Origin: a bacterium
GTDB taxonomy: Bacteria; Patescibacteriota; Minisyncoccia; Sungbacterales; GWA2-42-14
Direction: 5' to 3'
Length of the DNA: 50,058 nucleotides
NCBI GenBank assembly: GCA_030649305.1
Contig: JAUSFV010000010.1
Coordinates: 1-50,058 of the forward strand
Shown here: in pieces, positions 15,955 through 48,729 of the stretch
How the letters are laid out: each line of letters starts with the position of its first letter
Position numbering within the stretch: the stretch's first letter is position 1
Position numbers and translations under genes: made by a program
The notes under the pieces: generated by a model
The model's input: the letters and a program-made list of their open reading frames with translations, nothing else
What the model was told of the DNA's origin: nothing
The model's database searches: none

Positions 15955-16930
15955 GCAAAGGAATATCAAAATTGAGCCCCGTTTCCACTATCCTCATGAC
16001 GACTGACTCCGCCGGAAGAGTTCCGGTTTTGGCCAATATATCAGCGGTAAGCAGCCGCTGATATATTTTTTTAAGCTCAACAAGAGAAAAACGACCCGCT
16101 TGTATCATAAGTTTCTTTGCGACAAAAGTATGCATTCCTTCGTTGTTGGCAACACGCGCGCGCTCACCCACGTCTTTCGCTGATTTCAAAAGCAACATTC
16201 CGCGAACCGCGTTAACAAAAACCCCAAGCAATAACACGTCGTCAACGGCAGCAACGTTCTTCAGTGTATGCCACGCGCGCAGAGCATCGCGCCGCCCCTC
16301 AATAACCGCATCCGCAAGATGATATGGCTTTATCGACGAAACGCTGAACGATGAATTCTGAACGCCAAACAGTTCGTCTTTGGCGTTTGGCGTTTGGCGT
16401 TTGGCGTTTAATTGAATGAGCTCATATTTTTCAAGCTCCCGCACCATACGCCACGAATCGCCCCCCGCGGAAAGCAGCGCTTCTGTCGCCTCGCGCCCAA
16501 GCGAAATGCCGCGCTCTCGTGCCTCCTCCGTAATCAACCGCCGCAAAGTAGCGCCGTCGGGTAATGAAAATTCTTGGGTTTTCGCGGAATTTTTTTCCAA
16601 CAATACGGCAGTTTTTTTTCTCTTTTCGGAAATTAGGCGCTCCCAAAATATGATGATGGTATTCGCATCGTCTTTCCACGCGGGAAACCGGACCTCCAGA
16701 AATTTTGTATAGTCCTTTTTCGCAGCAAGCGCGTTTTCAATTACGATAAGCGTTTTTTGCTGAAACAGCGTGGCTGAATGCGGAGGCAATTTTTCAAACA
16801 AATCATCCTCCTCCGTGTCAAGGCGCGTACATCCTAAAACGCCCCCTGATTTTTTCTGGTAGGCGTCAATAAGTTCCCGCAATTTTTTACGGCTCCGATA
16901 GGTATCGGGGCCATGGAGAAAATAAATCAT
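15950..16930 (-). CDS. holA: DNA polymerase III delta subunit
   Basis: MIYFLHGPDTYR, ELEK, H.FVAKK, AD..AKTG. Convergent with rpsT, the typical arrangement. Confidence 0.88.
   Translation of the reverse strand: MIYFLHGPDTYRSRKKLRELIDAYQKKSGGVLGCTRLDTEEDDLFEKLPPHSATLFQQKTLIVIENALAAKKDYTKFLEVRFPAWKDDANTIIIFWERLISEKRKKTAVLLEKNSAKTQEFSLPDGATLRRLITEEARERGISLGREATEALLSAGGDSWRMVRELEKYELIQLNAKRQTPNAKDELFGVQNSSFSVSSIKPYHLADAVIEGRRDALRAWHTLKNVAAVDDVLLLGVFVNAVRGMLLLKSAKDVGERARVANNEGMHTFVAKKLMIQAGRFSLVELKKIYQRLLTADILAKTGTLPAESVVMRIVETGLNFDIPLP
16338..16410. repeat. in-frame heptamer inverted-repeat insertion inside holA
   Basis: Perfect (TTTGGCG)x4 at 16379-16406 facing the degenerate arm AAACGCT GAACGAT GAATTCT GAACGCC AAAC. 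Confidence 0.85.
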
Positions 16931-24457: not shown

Positions 24458-24466
24458 TAAGGAGGA

Positions 24467-24554
24467 GAAGCCACAACGACGCTAAAAGATACGCCACAAA
24501 AACGCTATTGGCGTAATTTCTGGCGTAGTCGGTGGCGTACTGTTGGCTTCTACG
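24467..24554. repeat. ACGC(C/T)A / TGGCGT repeat hairpin before pilB
   Basis: Closed by GAAGCCA / TGGCTTC, with three units per arm. Confidence 0.7.
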
Positions 24555-28517: not shown

Positions 28518-28758
28518 AATTTGAAGCGCCCGCGCGAACAAATTTTAGCAACAAAACCTTTACCCCCACACTCAAAATGGTATAGCATTTACGCCCAACA
28601 AAGACAGAGAAAATCTCGGGGGTAAAATAATATACGAATGCCCCCTCGGATTTACAAACAATGCAGGCGTTATACCATTTTGAGTGTCGGGGTGCTCAAT
28701 GTTGCAGCCGCTCGGGCTGCGTTATCCGTAACTTGCCCTCGCGGGCAACAGTGGCATG
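28515..28758 (+). mobile_element. nested stop-to-start intergenic element, copy B, with 132-bp TIR cargo at 28562-28693
   Basis: TAA...AAACCTTT[ACCCCCACACTCAAAATGGTATA...TATACCATTTTGAGTGTCGGGGT]GCTCAATGTTGC...GCAACAGTGGC-ATG. Reverse-complement architecture of 45782-46096. Confidence 0.75.
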
Positions 28759-29438: not shown

Positions 29439-30155
29439 ATGTCCGGTCACAGCAAGTGGGCGCAAATCAAACACAAAAAGGCTGCGTCGGATGCTAAAAA
29501 AGGAAATCTTTTTTCAAAGCTTTCGCGCATGATTACCGTTACCGCAAAAGGGGGTTCTGACCCCGCAACGAACGCGTCTTTGCGCGTGGCGATTGAGAAG
29601 GCTAGGGGATTTTCGCTTCCCCAGCACAATATTGAGCGCGCCATACAAAAAGCAGAGGAAAAAAAATCGGGCGAGGGGTTAGAAGAAGTACTCTATGAGG
29701 CATACGGCCCAGGCGGAAGCGCCTTACTTATAGAAGGCATCACGGATAATAAAAACAGGACTACCGCAGAAATCAAACACCTCCTCTCGGAATACGACGG
29801 GAAACTCGCAGAAAAAGGAACGGTTCTCTGGCTTTTTGAACGGGTCGCGGTACTTGAAATTGCACGGGATACCAAAAAAAGCGCGGAAGATATTGAACTT
29901 GCTCTCATCGACGCGGGGGTAAACGATACCGCCACGGAAGAAGAAATTGTTTACGGATTTTTCGCCCCGGATACTTTAGAAAACACAAAAGAAAAATTAG
30001 GCGCCTCCGGCTTCCCCATAAAAGACGCGTATTGTGCGTGGCGCGAAAAAAATCAGATGTCGCTCGCAGAAAACCAAAAAGAAAAATTCATAAAACTTAT
30101 GGAGGCGCTTGACGCGCATGATGATGTGCAGGAAGTATATACCAATATAAACTAA
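29439..30155 (+). CDS. yebC: YebC/PmpR family protein
   Basis: MSGHSKWAQIKHKK, YEAYGPGG, TDNKNRT, DDVQEVY. Confidence 0.95.
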   Translation: MSGHSKWAQIKHKKAASDAKKGNLFSKLSRMITVTAKGGSDPATNASLRVAIEKARGFSLPQHNIERAIQKAEEKKSGEGLEEVLYEAYGPGGSALLIEGITDNKNRTTAEIKHLLSEYDGKLAEKGTVLWLFERVAVLEIARDTKKSAEDIELALIDAGVNDTATEEEIVYGFFAPDTLENTKEKLGASGFPIKDAYCAWREKNQMSLAENQKEKFIKLMEALDAHDDVQEVYTNIN

Positions 30156-30233
30156 CAACCTACCACCAACAACCAACAACAAACGACGGTGCGCCGCGAC
30201 GTGTTGTTGGTTGTAAGTTGTCAGTTGTGCGTT
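30150..30233 (+). mobile_element. gene-less copy of the four-helix-bundle heptamer cassette
   Basis: 5' arm 32/34 and 3' arm 30/37 identical to the arms flanking 46796-47155. Fills the space from the yebC stop to the ruvC ATG. Confidence 0.8.
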
Positions 30234-43886: not shown

Positions 43887-43960
43887 AATTCATGAATGAC
43901 GAATTAGGAATTGGGGACCTTGGCTGTTCCTGGTTCATAATTCTTACTTCCTGATTCCTG
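43887..43960. repeat. CAGGAAT/ATTCCTA heptamer hairpin forming the virB4 3' end
   Basis: Minus strand CAGGAAT CAGGAAG TAAGAAT TATGAAC CAGGAAC ... CCAATT CCTAATT CGTCATT CATG. Confidence 0.7.
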
Positions 43961-45784
43961 TGTAGCGTGTTGTTCCGAAAACTCCTCCTTTGCCTTCTTA
44001 ATTAATAAAAGCTGGGCCGGGTCTGACGTGATGATTTGGTCTTCGGTGTATGACGCAATGATTTTTATGGCAACGTGTTTCAGCCCCGCGAAAAACATTC
44101 CTTCTCCTACCTCGGACTCAAGCAATAAAAACTTTTCTTCCTCCGTAAGGTTGAATGTTTCCACCAGTTTTTGGATGGTTGCGGGCGACTGTTTGAGTAA
44201 AAGCTGAATGGATGAGTTTGTCACAATCGGTTTGCCGTAAGGCGATTCCATAAAGTCGGCCACATCCTGTGTTATGGTTGTGAGTCCTAAGTAATATTTG
44301 CGCGCGCGCTTGGCGATGCTGTATAAAAACGATGCGCCATCCTCCCGCCGCATCAGCCACCACGCCTCATCCACGACAAGAAGCCGCTTTTTCAATTCGG
44401 CGCGGACGGTGTTCCAGATAAAATGAAGCACGATATACATTGCAACATCGCGCAGCTCCTCCTCCATGTCGCGAACCGAAAATACAATGAGGCGGTTTCG
44501 CACATCCACGTTTGTGTGCTGGTTAATGAATCCCGCCCAGGTACCCTCGGTATATTTTTTGAGGCGTGTCGCGAGCGACTCTCCCCCCTCGGTGTTTGCG
44601 AGAACAAGGGCTAAGTCAGACAAAAGCGGCGGGGTTGTTTTGGAAAAATCGGTTTCGGGAGTAATGTCGCGTGAGGCGTAGGTCTCGGTAATGGCGCGGT
44701 CAAGCACGGAGTCTTCTTCCGGCGAAAGCCCGCCGAGCATTATCCGGAAGAGGCCAATGATGCTGATAATGTTTGAGCGAAGCACATCTGCGGGCGACTC
44801 GTCATCCCGCGGGGGCGGCAAATCAAAGGGGTTGATGTGGTGCTGCGAGGTAAGCGAGATATTGAAGTAGGACCCGCCAACGGTTTCGGCAAGAAATTGG
44901 TATTCGCGCTCGGGGTCAATAATAAGTACATCCACCCCAAACATGAGCGAGCGAAGAACCTCAAGTTTTGTCGCGTATGATTTCCCGGCGCCCGACGTCG
45001 CGAAGGTAATTGAGTTTGCGTTTGGGAGTGAGAAGCGGTCAAACAAAATGAGGGAATTATTGTGCCGGTTGATGCCGTACAGGATTCCCTTATTTGAGGT
45101 GAGGTCAAAAGAAACAAAAGGAAAGGTGCTTGAGATGGCAGCCGAATTTAAATAGGTGTGTATCAGAAGCTGGTCGTTATTGATGGGGAGCGTTGAATTA
45201 AATCCCTCTTCCTGTTGAAAGAGCGCCGGTTTCGCGTACACAAGCTTTGATTCAAGTATGGTTCGGATCTGGCCTTCGGTTTTGTTCAGCTCTTCCTCCG
45301 CGTCAGCATACATCGTTATGTAGAGGCCGAAGTTAAACAATCGTTCTTGTGCTTGTTGGAGTTTGTCGCGGAGATCCTCAAGGTCGCGGTAGGCGGTATC
45401 CAAAATCGGGTCGCGCACCAACCCTTTTTCTTCGCGGTCAACAATTTGTGATTGCACCCGCGCCACTTGCTTGCGGAGGTCTTTCAAAATGGTTGAGGTG
45501 TCAATCGGATGCACGAAGAGCGAAATATCAAAGACGCGGTCCATATTAATAATGGGCGAGAACCAGTTGGTGTGTAGATACCGCGGGTAGGAGAAAACAA
45601 AAATCGTTCGGCTGAATTTCTCACCCAGGCGCAGAAAACTCGGGTTTACTTCCAGGGCGGAGGGCGAGACGATGTCTTTGAGGGTCAGTTCGCCCTGTTC
45701 AAAAATTTCCTGCGGAAAAACAGCAAGAACTTCCTGTTCCGTTTTTTTGCTTTCTTTGGGTTTTAGTAAATCGAGGATTGCCAT
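43904..45784 (-). CDS. VirB4-like type IV secretion ATPase
   Basis: LYGIN, Walker A ATSGAGKS, IIDPEREY, INPFD, Walker B VVDEAW, RARKY, TQ. Confidence 0.92.
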   Translation of the reverse strand: MAILDLLKPKESKKTEQEVLAVFPQEIFEQGELTLKDIVSPSALEVNPSFLRLGEKFSRTIFVFSYPRYLHTNWFSPIINMDRVFDISLFVHPIDTSTILKDLRKQVARVQSQIVDREEKGLVRDPILDTAYRDLEDLRDKLQQAQERLFNFGLYITMYADAEEELNKTEGQIRTILESKLVYAKPALFQQEEGFNSTLPINNDQLLIHTYLNSAAISSTFPFVSFDLTSNKGILYGINRHNNSLILFDRFSLPNANSITFATSGAGKSYATKLEVLRSLMFGVDVLIIDPEREYQFLAETVGGSYFNISLTSQHHINPFDLPPPRDDESPADVLRSNIISIIGLFRIMLGGLSPEEDSVLDRAITETYASRDITPETDFSKTTPPLLSDLALVLANTEGGESLATRLKKYTEGTWAGFINQHTNVDVRNRLIVFSVRDMEEELRDVAMYIVLHFIWNTVRAELKKRLLVVDEAWWLMRREDGASFLYSIAKRARKYYLGLTTITQDVADFMESPYGKPIVTNSSIQLLLKQSPATIQKLVETFNLTEEEKFLLLESEVGEGMFFAGLKHVAIKIIASYTEDQIITSDPAQLLLIKKAKEEFSEQHATQESGSKNYEPGTAKVPNS

Positions 45785-45795
45785 GCCAATGTTGT

Positions 45796-45892
45796 CCCTG
45801 TTAGATAACGAGGAGCTTGGTGCTTATAACTAAAACAATATTTTTCTTGATATCACAGTAAATCACGAATTTTAAATTTTTATCTAACGGGG
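45796..45892. mobile_element. MITE-like element, CCCCGTTAGA family, copy 5 (97 bp)
   Basis: CCCTGTTAGATAA / TTATCTAACGGGG. No clear target duplication. Confidence 0.7.
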
Positions 45893-45906
45893 CTACAACA
45901 TTGAGC

Positions 45907-46035
45907 ACCGCGCACATAAAATGGTATTGCGTGTACGCCCAATAAAGGCGCGGGGGCGATTCATGACTCATTGCGAAATGATTACAAATCTTTCTTACGA
46001 ACCACGCAGGCGTCATACCATTTTATGTGCGCGGT
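45907..46035. mobile_element. 129-bp element with perfect 21-bp TIRs
   Basis: ACCGCGCACATAAAATGGTAT / ATACCATTTTATGTGCGCGGT. Homologous to 28562-28693. Confidence 0.8.
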
Positions 46036-46093
46036 AAAGGTTTGACAGCTACAATTTTTTCGTCTGATGACTCAAAATTGCAGGTCAAGCCCC

Positions 46094-46747
46094 TTACTTT
46101 TCCCTCGCCGCCTGCTCCGTCGGGTTATATAATCCGTAAAAAAGTTCTATCAGCTCCTCGGTGTTAAGGGGGGCGGTTCGGACGCCGATACGCACCAAAC
46201 CGAGCGATACTTCATCCACCCGCTGAAAAAGCTGGGCTTTAAATTCGGCAAACTGGTCCTGCTCGTTTGTTTTTTTCTGGGATGCTGAGGGGGGCTTGAG
46301 AAACGACGTAAGCGACCCCATGAGGCCTTTCCGGGTTATAACCGACGGGTTAAAAGGAACAATGACATAAAATGTTTTTGCGACGATATTGGAAAGCTCC
46401 ACGAAGCTTTTTACGAAATCAACATATTCTTCTATTTGGATTTTAAGGAGTTCGTTTGGTTCTTCTTTTACGCGGTCTTTGAGCGTATCAAGATAGGGAA
46501 CGATATTAAGTTTTCGCGAATGGGTTACGAATTGGATTGAAAAATCAAGCGAGTTTAAAAAATTCTGGTATTGAAACGTAATCGCGTCCTGCTCATCTTC
46601 CGATTTAAGCGCGAAGTTGAGAGAGGACGCCATAAGGACAGCGCGAATTCCGCTGTCTTTCATGACAACGACGCCGTCCCGGATTGAATCAATATTGATG
46701 AAATCCTGCGCGGATTTTGCTTGTGCAGATTTTTTTGATTCGGCCAT
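46094..46747 (-). CDS. conserved T4SS-locus protein preceding VirB4 (VirB4 N-terminal-like)
   Basis: SAQDFI..IRDGVV, SLNFALKSEDEQ, FLNSLDF, FYVIVPF, L.TEELIELFY..YNP. Start at ATG 46747. Confidence 0.75.
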   Translation of the reverse strand: MAESKKSAQAKSAQDFINIDSIRDGVVVMKDSGIRAVLMASSLNFALKSEDEQDAITFQYQNFLNSLDFSIQFVTHSRKLNIVPYLDTLKDRVKEEPNELLKIQIEEYVDFVKSFVELSNIVAKTFYVIVPFNPSVITRKGLMGSLTSFLKPPSASQKKTNEQDQFAEFKAQLFQRVDEVSLGLVRIGVRTAPLNTEELIELFYGLYNPTEQAAREK

Positions 46748-46752
46748 AATAT

Positions 46753-47192
46753 AACCAACAACCAACAACTTACAACTAACCACACGACGATTGCTCTATT
46801 TTTGTAATTTTTTTTTAAAACCACCCAACTGATTTGAGATGCTATCGCATTTCAGATATACCTCTCTAAATTCTGTGTCGGTGGCAAGGTTATTTCCGTT
46901 TAAAACATCAGCGCCTGCCAACGTTTCATTTACGGAACCGAGCGCGATTTCTATAAACCGGTTGAGTTCTTTATCTGATGTCTTTCCACTTCCCTCTGCG
47001 ATGTTGAGAATAACAGAGAAAGCCGATCTGATGATTTGGCTTCCCAATTCATATCGATATTCTCTTGGTAGTTTTTTGACGATTTTTAGGATAAGCGCAA
47101 GGAGCCCCTTTGCTTCTTGGTATACCCGCCATTTTAGGAATCTGAATTTATCCACGTTTTTGTTGTTAGTTGTTGGTGGTAAGTTGTTAGTT
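46753..47192 (-). mobile_element. four-helix-bundle cassette bounded by inverted heptamer arms
   Basis: Arms (AACYWAC)n at 46753-46789 and (GTTRGTT)n at 47156-47192 enclose a single gene. Confidence 0.75.
46796..47155 (-). CDS. four helix bundle protein (TIGR02436 / 23S rRNA IVP family)
   Basis: F..W.VYQ, LPREYRYELGSQIIRSAFSV.LNIAEGSG, RFIEIALGSVNE. Confidence 0.9.
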   Translation of the reverse strand: MDKFRFLKWRVYQEAKGLLALILKIVKKLPREYRYELGSQIIRSAFSVILNIAEGSGKTSDKELNRFIEIALGSVNETLAGADVLNGNNLATDTEFREVYLKCDSISNQLGGFKKKLQK

Positions 47193-47200
47193 AGGAAAAA

Positions 47201-47608
47201 TTACCTCTGTAATTTTTCCTTTATATCCAAGCTCCACGCCAAGTCATTTAATTTGCTTTCCGTCAGCTTGGTAAGCCCGACGGGCGCCGTTGCTTTTTTT
47301 GCCGCTTCCCCCGTTATAAGTTCGGGGCGCTTTTTTTTCCATATGTAGAGCCGCGGCCGTACAAAGTAATGGAAGCCGTTCAGGATGACTTTTGCGAGCG
47401 GTTGTTCATTGACTTTCAAATAGGCGAGCGATACGGAAAGGGAGGCAATCGGAATGGAGAAAATAATAAATGCAACCATCTCAAATACATTCCAAAAAAT
47501 CACCACGATGCCAAGCCCCGCGATGAGATAAATAAATTGCCGGAGCGTAAACGGCCCGAAAATCTTGTCTTCTACGGTAATAAATTGAGGAACTTGATAC
47601 TGTCTCAC
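47201..47608 (-). CDS. PrgI family protein (VirB3-like)
   Basis: YQVPQFITVEDKIFGPFTLRQF, two TM helices, KVNEQP, PRLYIWKK. GTG start at 47608. Confidence 0.85.
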   Translation of the reverse strand: MRQYQVPQFITVEDKIFGPFTLRQFIYLIAGLGIVVIFWNVFEMVAFIIFSIPIASLSVSLAYLKVNEQPLAKVILNGFHYFVRPRLYIWKKKRPELITGEAAKKATAPVGLTKLTESKLNDLAWSLDIKEKLQR

Positions 47609-47611
47609 GGT

Positions 47612-47702
47612 AACTGACAACCAACCACCCACAACTTATAACAGGCGACGTTTTGACTTGGTGTGTTATTAGTTGTTTGTTGTTGGTTGTACGTTGTTGG
47701 TT
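47612..47702 (-). mobile_element. second gene-less heptamer cassette
   Basis: AACTGAC AACCAAC CACCCAC AACTTAT facing (GTTRKTT)n. Spans the upstream stop to the prgI GTG. Confidence 0.7.
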
Positions 47703-48729
47703 ATTCTATCGGCTCTCTATACGGGTCGGTAGCGTATTTTTGTGTAGGTGTTGTCGGTTGTTTTGGCGATGTTATTGGTTGTTGGTTATTGGTTGTTTGT
47801 TTTTCTTGCGGTGGTTGAGGCGCTTGCGCCGGTGTTATTAGTTGTTGGTTATTAGTTATTGGTTGCCCCTTCTCTAATTCCGGCGTTTGAGTCAGTTTTT
47901 CAACTTCTTTCATGAATGGCAAGCTCGGCGGAGGTGCGGCTTTTGGCGTTTCCGGTTTTGGTTGCGGCGTCGTGGGTTGTTCGCGTCTGTTCGTATCTGC
48001 CGTTCGCGTCTGTTCGTGACCTCCGATGGGCCTAATCTCTTTCAAAACTTCGGAGTCGCGGGAAGACGGCATCGGCTGCGGCGCCTCCCGTGTCTTCGGC
48101 GGCTCCGGCGGCTCCGCTTTTTTTAATTCCGCCTCCGCCGCTTTTGTCGTTTGCGGCTGGTTATTGGTTATTAGTTGTTGGTTATTAGTTTTTGCGGGCG
48201 GTATCACCGATTTTGTCTCCGTTACCTGTTTTGTGCGGTCAAAACCATCCGGCCGGATTTCCCACGGCGACTTCGGCGTCGTTGTTGTTGGTTGTTTATT
48301 GTCAATTGTCGGTTGTGCCCGCGGTGTTGTTGGTTGTCGGTCGTAATTTGTTGGTTGTTGCATCGCCCGTTCATCCCAGCCCCCCCCATGTGCCTCTTTC
48401 AACCGCTCGCGTATCGCAAGAAAAATTTTAGTGTTTACTTCGCGCGCGATCTCGCTTGCTTTTGCATTATCAACATCCAACGTATCTTTGAGGTTGTATG
48501 TAAAATCAGCAATCGGTAGAAGTCCGATAATGCTATATCCGATAACGTCCGCAAGGTATCCGGTCTTTTCGATATTCAGTCCGAATTTTTTTCCGATTTC
48601 ATATACGGCACTCGCGGTATCAATTGAAATAAGCGCCTCTTTGATGTCGGGGTGCAGTTGCTCGTAGCGGCGCATCACTTCATTTTTGAGATCAGCGCCA
48701 TATTCTTTTGTGATATTTTGATTCGGCAT
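47701..48729 (-). CDS. hypothetical protein with helical N-domain, repeat-derived Q/P/T/N linker and DPYREPIE C-terminus
   Basis: N-terminal domain YEQLHPDIKEAL...IF..IRE.LK; low-complexity linker; ends DPYREPIE. Confidence 0.75.
   Translation of the reverse strand: MPNQNITKEYGADLKNEVMRRYEQLHPDIKEALISIDTASAVYEIGKKFGLNIEKTGYLADVIGYSIIGLLPIADFTYNLKDTLDVDNAKASEIAREVNTKIFLAIRERLKEAHGGGWDERAMQQPTNYDRQPTTPRAQPTIDNKQPTTTTPKSPWEIRPDGFDRTKQVTETKSVIPPAKTNNQQLITNNQPQTTKAAEAELKKAEPPEPPKTREAPQPMPSSRDSEVLKEIRPIGGHEQTRTADTNRREQPTTPQPKPETPKAAPPPSLPFMKEVEKLTQTPELEKGQPITNNQQLITPAQAPQPPQEKQTTNNQQPITSPKQPTTPTQKYATDPYREPIE

Follow-up and report, generated by a model that had tools for sequence, protein, structure and literature searches.

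The DNA analysed here (the window) comprises 50,058 nucleotides (nt), positions 1 to 50,058 of contig JAUSFV010000010.1 (assembly GCA_030649305.1), and is one whole contig of a patescibacterial genome (GTDB lineage Patescibacteriota; Minisyncoccia; Sungbacterales; GWA2-42-14) recovered from a groundwater metagenome (1.02 Mb, 54 contigs, 94.7% complete). The size of the genome, the insertion in its 16S rRNA and the named hosts of the nearest homologues likewise suggest a probable member of the Patescibacteria. Close to its end, the intercistronic spacer between prgI and a downstream gene, termed g217, is filled by an element of roughly 440 bp that consists of a gene for a four-helix-bundle (4HB) protein of the '23S rRNA intervening sequence (IVS) protein' family and of two flanking arrays of degenerate heptamers in inverted orientation. 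The element is an IVS-type open reading frame (ORF) cassette located outside rRNA. With a probability of roughly 0.65 we regard the locus as a 'foldback' cassette that is mobile and represents in operons what ORF-bearing IVSs are in rRNA genes.

Assignment of the cargo ORF rests on profile matches to PF05635 (92 bits, E 3.4e-26; cut-off 33.8) and TIGR02436 (91.6 bits; cut-off 24). Its N-terminus is aligned in register with those of homologues, and the nearest solved structure by sequence match is 2gsc (E 4.9e-8, residues 12-79), which was deposited with five chains. The cargo is oriented in the sense of the host operon, and the cassette is not inside any rRNA gene. The 5' arm starts 8 nt past the prgI stop codon and ends 5 nt ahead of the cargo GTG, while the 3' arm ends about 5 nt ahead of the g217 ATG (46747). 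The arms (46752-46784 and 47161-47193, 33 nt each) are 7-nt periodic, 79% complementary and separated by 376 nt. A first-pass annotation, made from the sequence alone, had described a TIGR02436-type gene between inverted heptamer arms in a prgI-VirB4 operon with similar empty arm pairs elsewhere; this description proved accurate, as did its gene names prgI, VirB4, yebC and ruvC (Table 1).

Packaging of the gene together with its arms is family-wide. The genome contains four PF05635 genes, and all four carry inverted 7-nt-periodic arms, each of a different heptamer family: GATTTAA-type on contig C21, TTTCTAA-type on C2, AGCTNCT-type on C45 and AAC-type for the window cassette. On C45 the gene sits within a 16S rRNA gene, in its 5' region, with small-subunit rRNA directly 3' of it (Rfam) and the conserved 16S 5' end upstream. 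For larger samples, 220 nt upstream of a gene were compared with 260 nt downstream of it, the highest-scoring inverted match without gaps was taken as the arm score, and the threshold was set at 12.5 or more; loci were taken from best-80 lists, in which kin are not independent, and genes were crude longest-ORF calls. The threshold was reached at 25 of 33 4HB loci of this genome and 30 relatives, and at 70 of 76 testable 4HB loci of other phyla, a sample that leans to one subfamily because the search used a narrow alignment (A2). The latter set covered the Candidate Phyla Radiation (CPR), Cyanobacteria, Chloroflexi, Bacteroidetes, Acidobacteria, Alphaproteobacteria, Nitrospirae, Elusimicrobia and others. 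The subfamily of the window protein was sampled separately, and arms were found at 67 of 74 testable loci of its close metagenomic relatives. Among controls, the threshold was reached by 5 of 136 shifted windows and 2 of 31 neighbour genes in the other-phyla loci, and by 20 of 513 small ORFs of this genome, which include three 4HB genes and genes merely situated between two complete hairpins.

The arm match was inverted at 95 of 108 loci and direct at 10. Arrays had median lengths of 38 and 33 nt (about five heptamers), with the 3' array starting at the stop codon or overlapping it. The heptamer sequence varies from locus to locus while the 7-nt period is constant; cyanobacterial and Chloroflexi 4HB genes have G+C-rich arms. 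One relative (G009, locus L139) has a 4HB gene upstream of prgI with an in-frame TGA stop and weak arms, which is probably a decaying copy.

The arms also follow the protein clade across genomic contexts. Protein identity and 5'-arm similarity were correlated (rho 0.43, a value reached by none of 300 permutations). Of 315 protein pairs with at least 60% identity, 299 have no homologous flanking gene in common; the arm similarity of these 299 is nevertheless 0.68, versus 0.50 for pairs below 40%. The 5' arm is richer in G than in C at 86 loci and shows the reverse at 13, the subfamily of the window protein being the C-rich exception. Relatives of the window protein on the best 80 metagenome contigs, some of which clearly represent the same population sampled repeatedly, are 46-79% identical to it; their arms are C-rich at 63 of 67 armed loci, and xAC-type heptamers are present in 55 of the 58 relatives with at least 54% identity. 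Twenty-two of these 80 contigs carry the gene in the prgI-g217-virB4 operon (seven upstream of prgI, eight between prgI and g217, seven between g217 and virB4), seven in 16S rRNA and 51 elsewhere. Two 16S-borne copies are 48% and 51% identical to the window protein (alignment A1), and 16S-borne copies are among its closer relatives. Gene plus arms form a unit of inheritance that has landed at many unrelated places.

Variation at orthologous junctions was examined in the block formed by a 342-codon gene (up342), prgI, g217 and virB4, which is present in 27 of 31 genomes. A 4HB gene occurs within it in seven of these 27 (seven of 28 operon copies) and at three different junctions: between prgI and g217 in the window only, upstream of prgI in five relatives, and between g217 and virB4 in one. 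The seven proteins share 23-64% mutual identity, and their arms differ. In G023, a genome with no PF05635 match, the junction that is loaded in the window holds a 134-nt ORF-less hairpin of the AAC type. A second copy of the block is found on contig C47 (7046-9839, locus L141), which may be a paralogue or stem from a co-binned close relative. Its coding DNA is 84-91% identical to that of the window, and the similarity is lost precisely where the stop codon ends one gene and is regained with the start codon of the next; the prgI-g217 spacer of this copy contains an 87-nt ORF-less hairpin of another family and the up342-prgI spacer a GIY-YIG ORF. At the yebC-ruvC locus of 29 relatives, the spacer measures 0-5 nt in 11, is heptamer-periodic with other families in seven and of another kind in ten; in one, ruvC was not found nearby. 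Orthologous junctions are loaded, ORF-less or bare.

A direct case of derivation was found in relative G013. Its g217-virB4 spacer contains arms plus a loop whose first 17 codons are identical at 16 of 17 positions to those of an intact 4HB gene on another contig. Both ends of the intact cassette have a counterpart in the spacer, one in a block of 87 nt with 94% identity and the other in a block of 50 nt with 96%, and 373 nt of the ORF are absent. ORF-less hairpins can hence arise from loaded cassettes by internal deletion.

Several further features of these junctions were recorded. Those of the block are a hot spot for small passenger ORFs: PDDEXK_3 (GxxExxY) ORFs are present in G021 and G012 (two), and GIY-YIG ORFs in G011 and on C47. 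In G004 (L123), the prgI-g217 and g217-virB4 spacers carry two nearly identical CACGAAT-type hairpins, which suggests recent duplication or conversion between neighbouring junctions. In the window itself, the g217-virB4 spacer (45785-46093, 309 nt) contains an inverted repeat (arms of about 20 nt, loop of about 95 nt) and a doubtful 71-aa ORF and may be a decayed passenger. The C47 copy of the 342-aa gene is only 56% identical to that of the window, versus 93-99% for its neighbours, and positions 5170-5527 of C47 overlap the end of the window contig (50058-49701) with 89.7% identity. The YebC search in G028, G022, G024, G014, G030 and G018 (L286-L291; five in family f2) matched from residue 1 to about 138 of 238 only; yebC may be split, shortened or interrupted in these six relatives.

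Within the window, the AAC-type arms recur as two ORF-less hairpins (Table 1). Those at the yebC-ruvC junction are identical to the arms of the loaded cassette at 32 of 34 and 30 of 37 positions, just as the first-pass annotation had counted; the gap between them is 13 nt rather than the roughly 11 nt given there. The third, empty copy upstream of prgI could be confirmed, and all three copies extend approximately from a stop codon to just ahead of the next start codon. That the arms occur in the same sense order is uninformative because an inverted repeat reads alike on both strands, and an AAC arm 5' and a GTT arm 3' were consequently dropped as a sign of orientation relative to the gene. Nor do the arms constitute one specific sequence, as had been supposed: the AAC type is one of many heptamer families in this genome.

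Table 1. Cassette, host operon and ORF-less AAC-type hairpins in the window.
Feature	Position	Strand	Description
4HB cargo ORF (four-helix-bundle, '23S rRNA IVS protein')	46796..47155	-	119 aa, GTG start; profile search
5' arm (operon sense)	47156..47193	-	about five degenerate AACNNAC-type heptamers
Spacer and 3' arm	46746..46795	-	11-nt post-stop spacer, then GTNNGTT-type heptamers; core 46752-46784
Upstream host gene, PrgI family	47201..47632	-	143 aa, E 3.1e-8
Downstream host gene g217	46094..46747	-	217 aa, no Pfam family above cut-off; kept beside prgI and virB4
VirB4/TraG-type ATPase	43904..45784	-	last gene of the conserved block
342-aa gene (up342)	47701..48729	-	coding sequence with AAC-type heptamer arrays
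ORF-less AAC-type hairpin, yebC-ruvC junction	30150..30233		arms 30150-30181 / 30202-30233, 78% complementary
ORF-less AAC-type hairpin, up342/prgI junction	47612..47709		81% complementary, 20-nt loop; end 47695/47709

Genome-wide, (AACNNAC)x4 arrays were matched 27 times, versus 0, 0 and 0 times in three shuffled versions of the genome, and six AAC-type hairpins have no ORF. No ORF remnant is visible in the loops of the ORF-less copies of the window's AAC family. A scan for 7-nt-periodic segments returned 113 in the genome and 0 in each of three shuffles, with families that include GATTTAA, TTTCTAA, AGCTACA, AACAACC, TTTCGAA, TTTAGAG and TTTGGCG. A looser scan for periodicity yielded 160 segments, and the list of inverted pairs drawn from them has 47 entries; in 38 of these the loop is no longer than 200 nt, and most of the 38 lie within about 30 nt of genes on both sides, and ORF-less hairpins end 0-30 nt ahead of start codons. 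Ten ORF-less TTTCTAA-type hairpins align with both ends of the loaded C2 element, several of them retaining the region of its start codon.

Other repeats in this genome were noted in passing. The window contains a (TTTGGCG)n array at 16372-16413 and two elements with counterparts on C47: the hairpin at 24466-24553 resembles the prgI-g217 element there (83% identity), and the repeat at 28712-28758 (47 nt) resembles sequence upstream of prgI (96% identity). AAC-type arrays inside the 342-aa gene (47774-47801, 47837-47864, 48156-48190 and 48287-48356) encode low-complexity stretches rich in N, Q and T. The sole PDDEXK_3 match of the genome, C34:7775-8116(-), lies in frame within a 790-aa open frame resembling a translational GTPase, which we take to be LepA/EF4. 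The match separates the switch I region from the DTPGH region, and inverted CGCAGAAT-type repeats that recur about every 10-12 nt flank it; it looks like a cassette-like insertion within a coding gene.

Repeat load was compared with the presence of 4HB genes in this genome and in 12 relatives, of which 141-200 kb each were sampled (G004 and G005 were left out). Six PF05635-positive genomes had 8.2-16.2 period-7 segments per 100 kb and seven genomes with no match 0.5-9.5 (Mann-Whitney p 0.002, rho 0.72), a difference whose significance the test overstates because the genomes compared are kin. Periods of 5, 6, 8 and 9 gave at most 3.4 segments per 100 kb, as opposed to a maximum of 16.2 for period 7. 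The arms of the four 4HB genes of this genome were matched by 21 of its 110 segments, and those of the C21 gene by 17 segments.

With respect to mechanism, the cassette would be transcribed by read-through from the host operon. This would fit the strong co-orientation of 4HB genes with their neighbours (upstream gene at 80 of 93 loci, downstream gene at 79 of 94, both at 64 of 87). In the RNA the arms may pair as a stem of about 30 bp; folding of the whole cassette predicted them to form the closing stem in both the minimum-free-energy and the centroid structure, with -118.2 kcal/mol (z -3.24) for the sense and -112.2 (z -2.62) for the antisense strand. A gene for RNase III is present in the genome. 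By analogy with rRNA IVSs, RNase III would cut the arm stem, and it is proposed that the host transcript tolerates the insertion because the stem would be processed in this way. Pairing of the arms in RNA followed by RNase III processing is given slightly less than an even chance; the looping-out of the cargo suggested in the first-pass annotation stays a hypothesis, reasonable by analogy.

Movement would take place at the DNA level and be directed by the arms, our guess being recombination or template switching between heptamer arrays of the same family. Recombination of this kind would fit the ORF-less AAC hairpin at the orthologous junction of G023. Arm-directed movement at the DNA level is held as a tentative idea, a little below RNA processing in our estimate. 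The 4HB protein might assist movement by binding its own arrays, a putative activity that we consider rather unlikely than likely. Loaded cassettes decay, through loss of internal sequence, to ORF-less hairpins, which occupy the spacers between genes.

A number of results weigh against this reading. A search for a transposase or recombinase domain in the cargo ORF by profile found none, returning only PF05635 and a sub-threshold bAvd match. As judged by eye at the window cassette and at the G013 pair, no target-site duplication is evident, and the array ends are fuzzy. No credible excision joint was seen: the one contig joint across the ORF, 46780->47163 (run X1), was rejected, as it has just 28 letters on a side with 88% likeness, and its simplest source is a further hairpin of the AAC type in that sample, for example the one of yebC-ruvC. 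Among the sequencing runs listed for this stretch there was no RNA run. From the first-pass proposal of a mobile or excisable unit with loaded and empty forms, the unit, both of its forms and the fact that it has moved were upheld, but not its excision. A test for pairing of the sense RNA by wobble gave no signal, since arm mismatches were G-U in 108 cases versus A-C in 131 (329 other) and hence without G-U excess. For each of the two ORF-less hairpins in the window, the antisense strand gives the better fold, and genome-wide the preference of hairpins for folding on the gene strand is modest (21 versus 7, with 3 ties). When the order of heptamer units in one arm was shuffled, the pairing score dropped only a little on average (mean z 1.2), and p<=0.05 was reached in 14 of 96 cases. 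Given this weak effect and a complementarity of about 79%, what looks like a selected stem may instead be two arrays of sites. Finally, heptamer segments persist in the seven genomes with no PF05635 match, so that the 4HB gene is not an absolute requirement for the repeats, and 12-13 segments of this genome find their match in the arms of foreign 4HB genes, for which no partner gene exists here. In view of these foreign matches and the 21 own-arm matches, a scheme of one 4HB gene per repeat family was discarded.

In a rival reading, the hairpins between cistrons would serve the host by regulating or stabilising its transcripts, with each 4HB paralogue binding its own heptamer family, regulating itself by way of its flanking arrays and acting on ORF-less copies in a REPIN-RAYT-like or regulon-like manner. 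The tracking of protein clade by arm type is in line with such a scheme, as are the correspondence between about five units per array and the five chains of 2gsc, the higher heptamer density of 4HB-positive genomes, the 17 segments matching the C21 arms and the position of hairpins shortly before start codons. Yet co-inheritance alone accounts for the tracking, the density comparison is made across kin that are phylogenetically non-independent, heptamer hairpins persist where PF05635 is not matched, and heptamer families outnumber the 4HB genes of the genome, whose arms match so few segments. We judge this explanation improbable. An origin of the arms in the host genome, with REP-like or terminator-like hairpins existing first and an ORF being captured into the loop occasionally, would readily explain why ORF-less hairpins are far more numerous than loaded ones, why they are present in genomes without 4HB genes and why one junction can carry different families. 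It is very improbable nevertheless, because arms go with the protein subfamily whatever the host or context, are present at 70 of 76 genes of distant phyla, and because ORF-less copies retain the first codons of the ORF.

It might also be argued that the only role of the arms is to provide an RNase III stem that makes an old, vertically inherited ORF tolerable, that ORF-less hairpins are unrelated processing sites of the host, and that no mobility at the DNA level is involved. The predicted closing stem, the RNase III gene, the strong co-orientation with host genes and the precedent of an IVS cleaved by this enzyme (PMC4990558) all agree with this. Unless it is an assembly artefact, however, the G013 pair of duplicate and deletion derivative at two loci contradicts it; in addition, three junctions of one operon are occupied by proteins of 23-64% identity, 299 of 315 close pairs reside in unrelated contexts, and arm mismatches show no excess of G-U. 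An explanation at the RNA level only is therefore assigned a very small probability. Chance, or the low-complexity composition of AT-rich spacers, has nothing in its favour beyond the AT-richness itself. It is practically negligible in the face of 113 periodic segments versus 0 in shuffles, the prevalence of period 7 over periods 5, 6, 8 and 9, the 95 inverted versus 10 direct matches at 108 loci and the G+C-rich arms in cyanobacteria and Chloroflexi. The first-pass annotation had itself named two findings that would speak against a cassette: arms not enriched beside 4HB genes, and no polymorphism among relatives. Instead, arms are enriched, arm type tracks protein clade, the prgI and yebC-ruvC junctions are variable, and G013 provides a loaded and a deleted copy. 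The cassette idea is supported, and it is much more general than originally proposed.

Among known systems, ORF-bearing rRNA IVSs are the closest. They share with the window element the protein family, terminal inverted repeats that close the ORF and tandem heptamers just before the start, and the C45 copy is itself located in 16S rRNA. An IVS with an S23p ORF in helix 45 of 23S rRNA has been described in which a 28-bp inverted-repeat stem is cut by RNase III in vitro and two to three tandem heptamers, their number varying among strains, precede the ORF (passages of Warrier 2016, PMC4990558). 23S_rRNA_IVP ORFs were reported in insertions of CPR 16S and 23S rRNA, in a main text in which 'heptam' and 'inverted repeat' do not occur (Tsurumaki 2024, PMC11270868). 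The window element differs in that it is situated between protein-coding cistrons, and RNase III excision, shown for an IVS, is predicted here by analogy only. Heptamer arms as a family-wide trait and ORF-less derivatives are not part of the relevant passages of these two papers.

Other comparisons concern dispersed repeats. RAYT genes are flanked by their own REP (repetitive extragenic palindromic) family; Correia/NEMIS-type MITEs (miniature transposable elements with inverted repeats) are inverted-repeat elements of intercistronic spacers that are processed in transcripts; and eukaryotic Foldback elements have arms of short tandem repeats and exist in ORF-bearing and ORF-less forms. Like a RAYT gene, the 4HB gene is flanked by its own repeat family. 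Dispersed ORF-less hairpins in spacers as well as several gene/repeat pairs per genome are further parallels to REPIN-RAYT systems (Bertels & Rainey 2011, PMC3116915). In contrast to RAYTs, the 4HB protein has no HUH/Y1 transposase domain, and heptamers in tandem make up its arms where a RAYT would have REP palindromes. The likeness to MITEs and Foldback elements consists in dispersed ORF-less copies that share terminal inverted repeats and in derivation by internal deletion (G013); the differences are that the cassette has no transposase, no target-site duplication seen by eye and arms of only about 35 nt. The Avd protein of diversity-generating retroelements (DGRs) is a distant sequence relative of the cargo (bAvd 19.8 bits, cut-off 40; DivGenRetAVD E 6e-4 for a paralogue; both below cut-off). 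A DGR context was rejected on account of these scores and of the absence of RVT_1 (reverse transcriptase) matches in the 94.7% complete genome. None of the PADLOC models matched any of four proteins (cargo ORF and three neighbours; 0 families), and membership of the cargo ORF in a defence system was rejected as well.

Intergenic heptamer repeats of bacteria include the cyanobacterial short tandemly repeated repetitive (STRR) sequences, and resemble the arms described here in that tandem heptamers occupy spacers and often end just before start codons. TAACTGA-like units are found among the arms of the window subfamily, and cyanobacterial 4HB genes have G-rich heptamers like published repeats. 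Most TAACTGA sets, by contrast, are direct and have no inverted partner. Published examples are the TAACTGA repeats, which are intergenic tandem heptamers (MacGregor 2015, PMC4679880), and the GGGAATC and GGGGA(C/T)T heptamers, with convergent inverted pairs in Xanthomonas (Rehm 2015, PMC4692102); between them, the passages of both papers cover Beggiatoaceae, Cyanobacteria, Bacteroidetes and Xanthomonas. No link to PF05635 is made in the text portions of either, where S23, IVS or 'intervening' and 'four helix' are not mentioned. In full-text searches, with subscription journals and supplementary files outside their scope, neither a general link between PF05635 and inverted heptamer arrays nor operon-borne 4HB cassettes that leave ORF-less hairpins were found.

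In its widest form, the idea would be that PF05635 genes and their arrays make up a pan-bacterial class of foldback cassettes. An oligomeric 4HB protein would recognise about five heptamers, with about one protomer per unit, and drive or guard their spread in the manner of a RAYT; rRNA IVSs would be copies that landed in rRNA, and STRR, TAACTGA and GGGAATC repeats would be ORF-less progeny. Taken as a whole this extension is speculative, and we hold it to be unlikely. To our knowledge, the 23S rRNA IVS protein family, although very widespread, has had no assigned function for more than 30 years, and we know of no explanation for the intergenic heptamer repeats of cyanobacteria, Xanthomonas, Beggiatoaceae and Bacteroidetes. 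The present finding joins these two puzzles by a checkable rule: the gene almost always lies between inverted heptamer arrays, whose type follows the protein clade. It places such cassettes outside rRNA and within operons, and provides a direct case of an ORF-less hairpin that originated from a loaded cassette. For annotation this means that many short hairpins of small CPR genomes may be relics of cassettes and not terminators. If the generalisation is borne out by a full census, these cassettes would amount to a class of bacterial element in their own right, and a new one.

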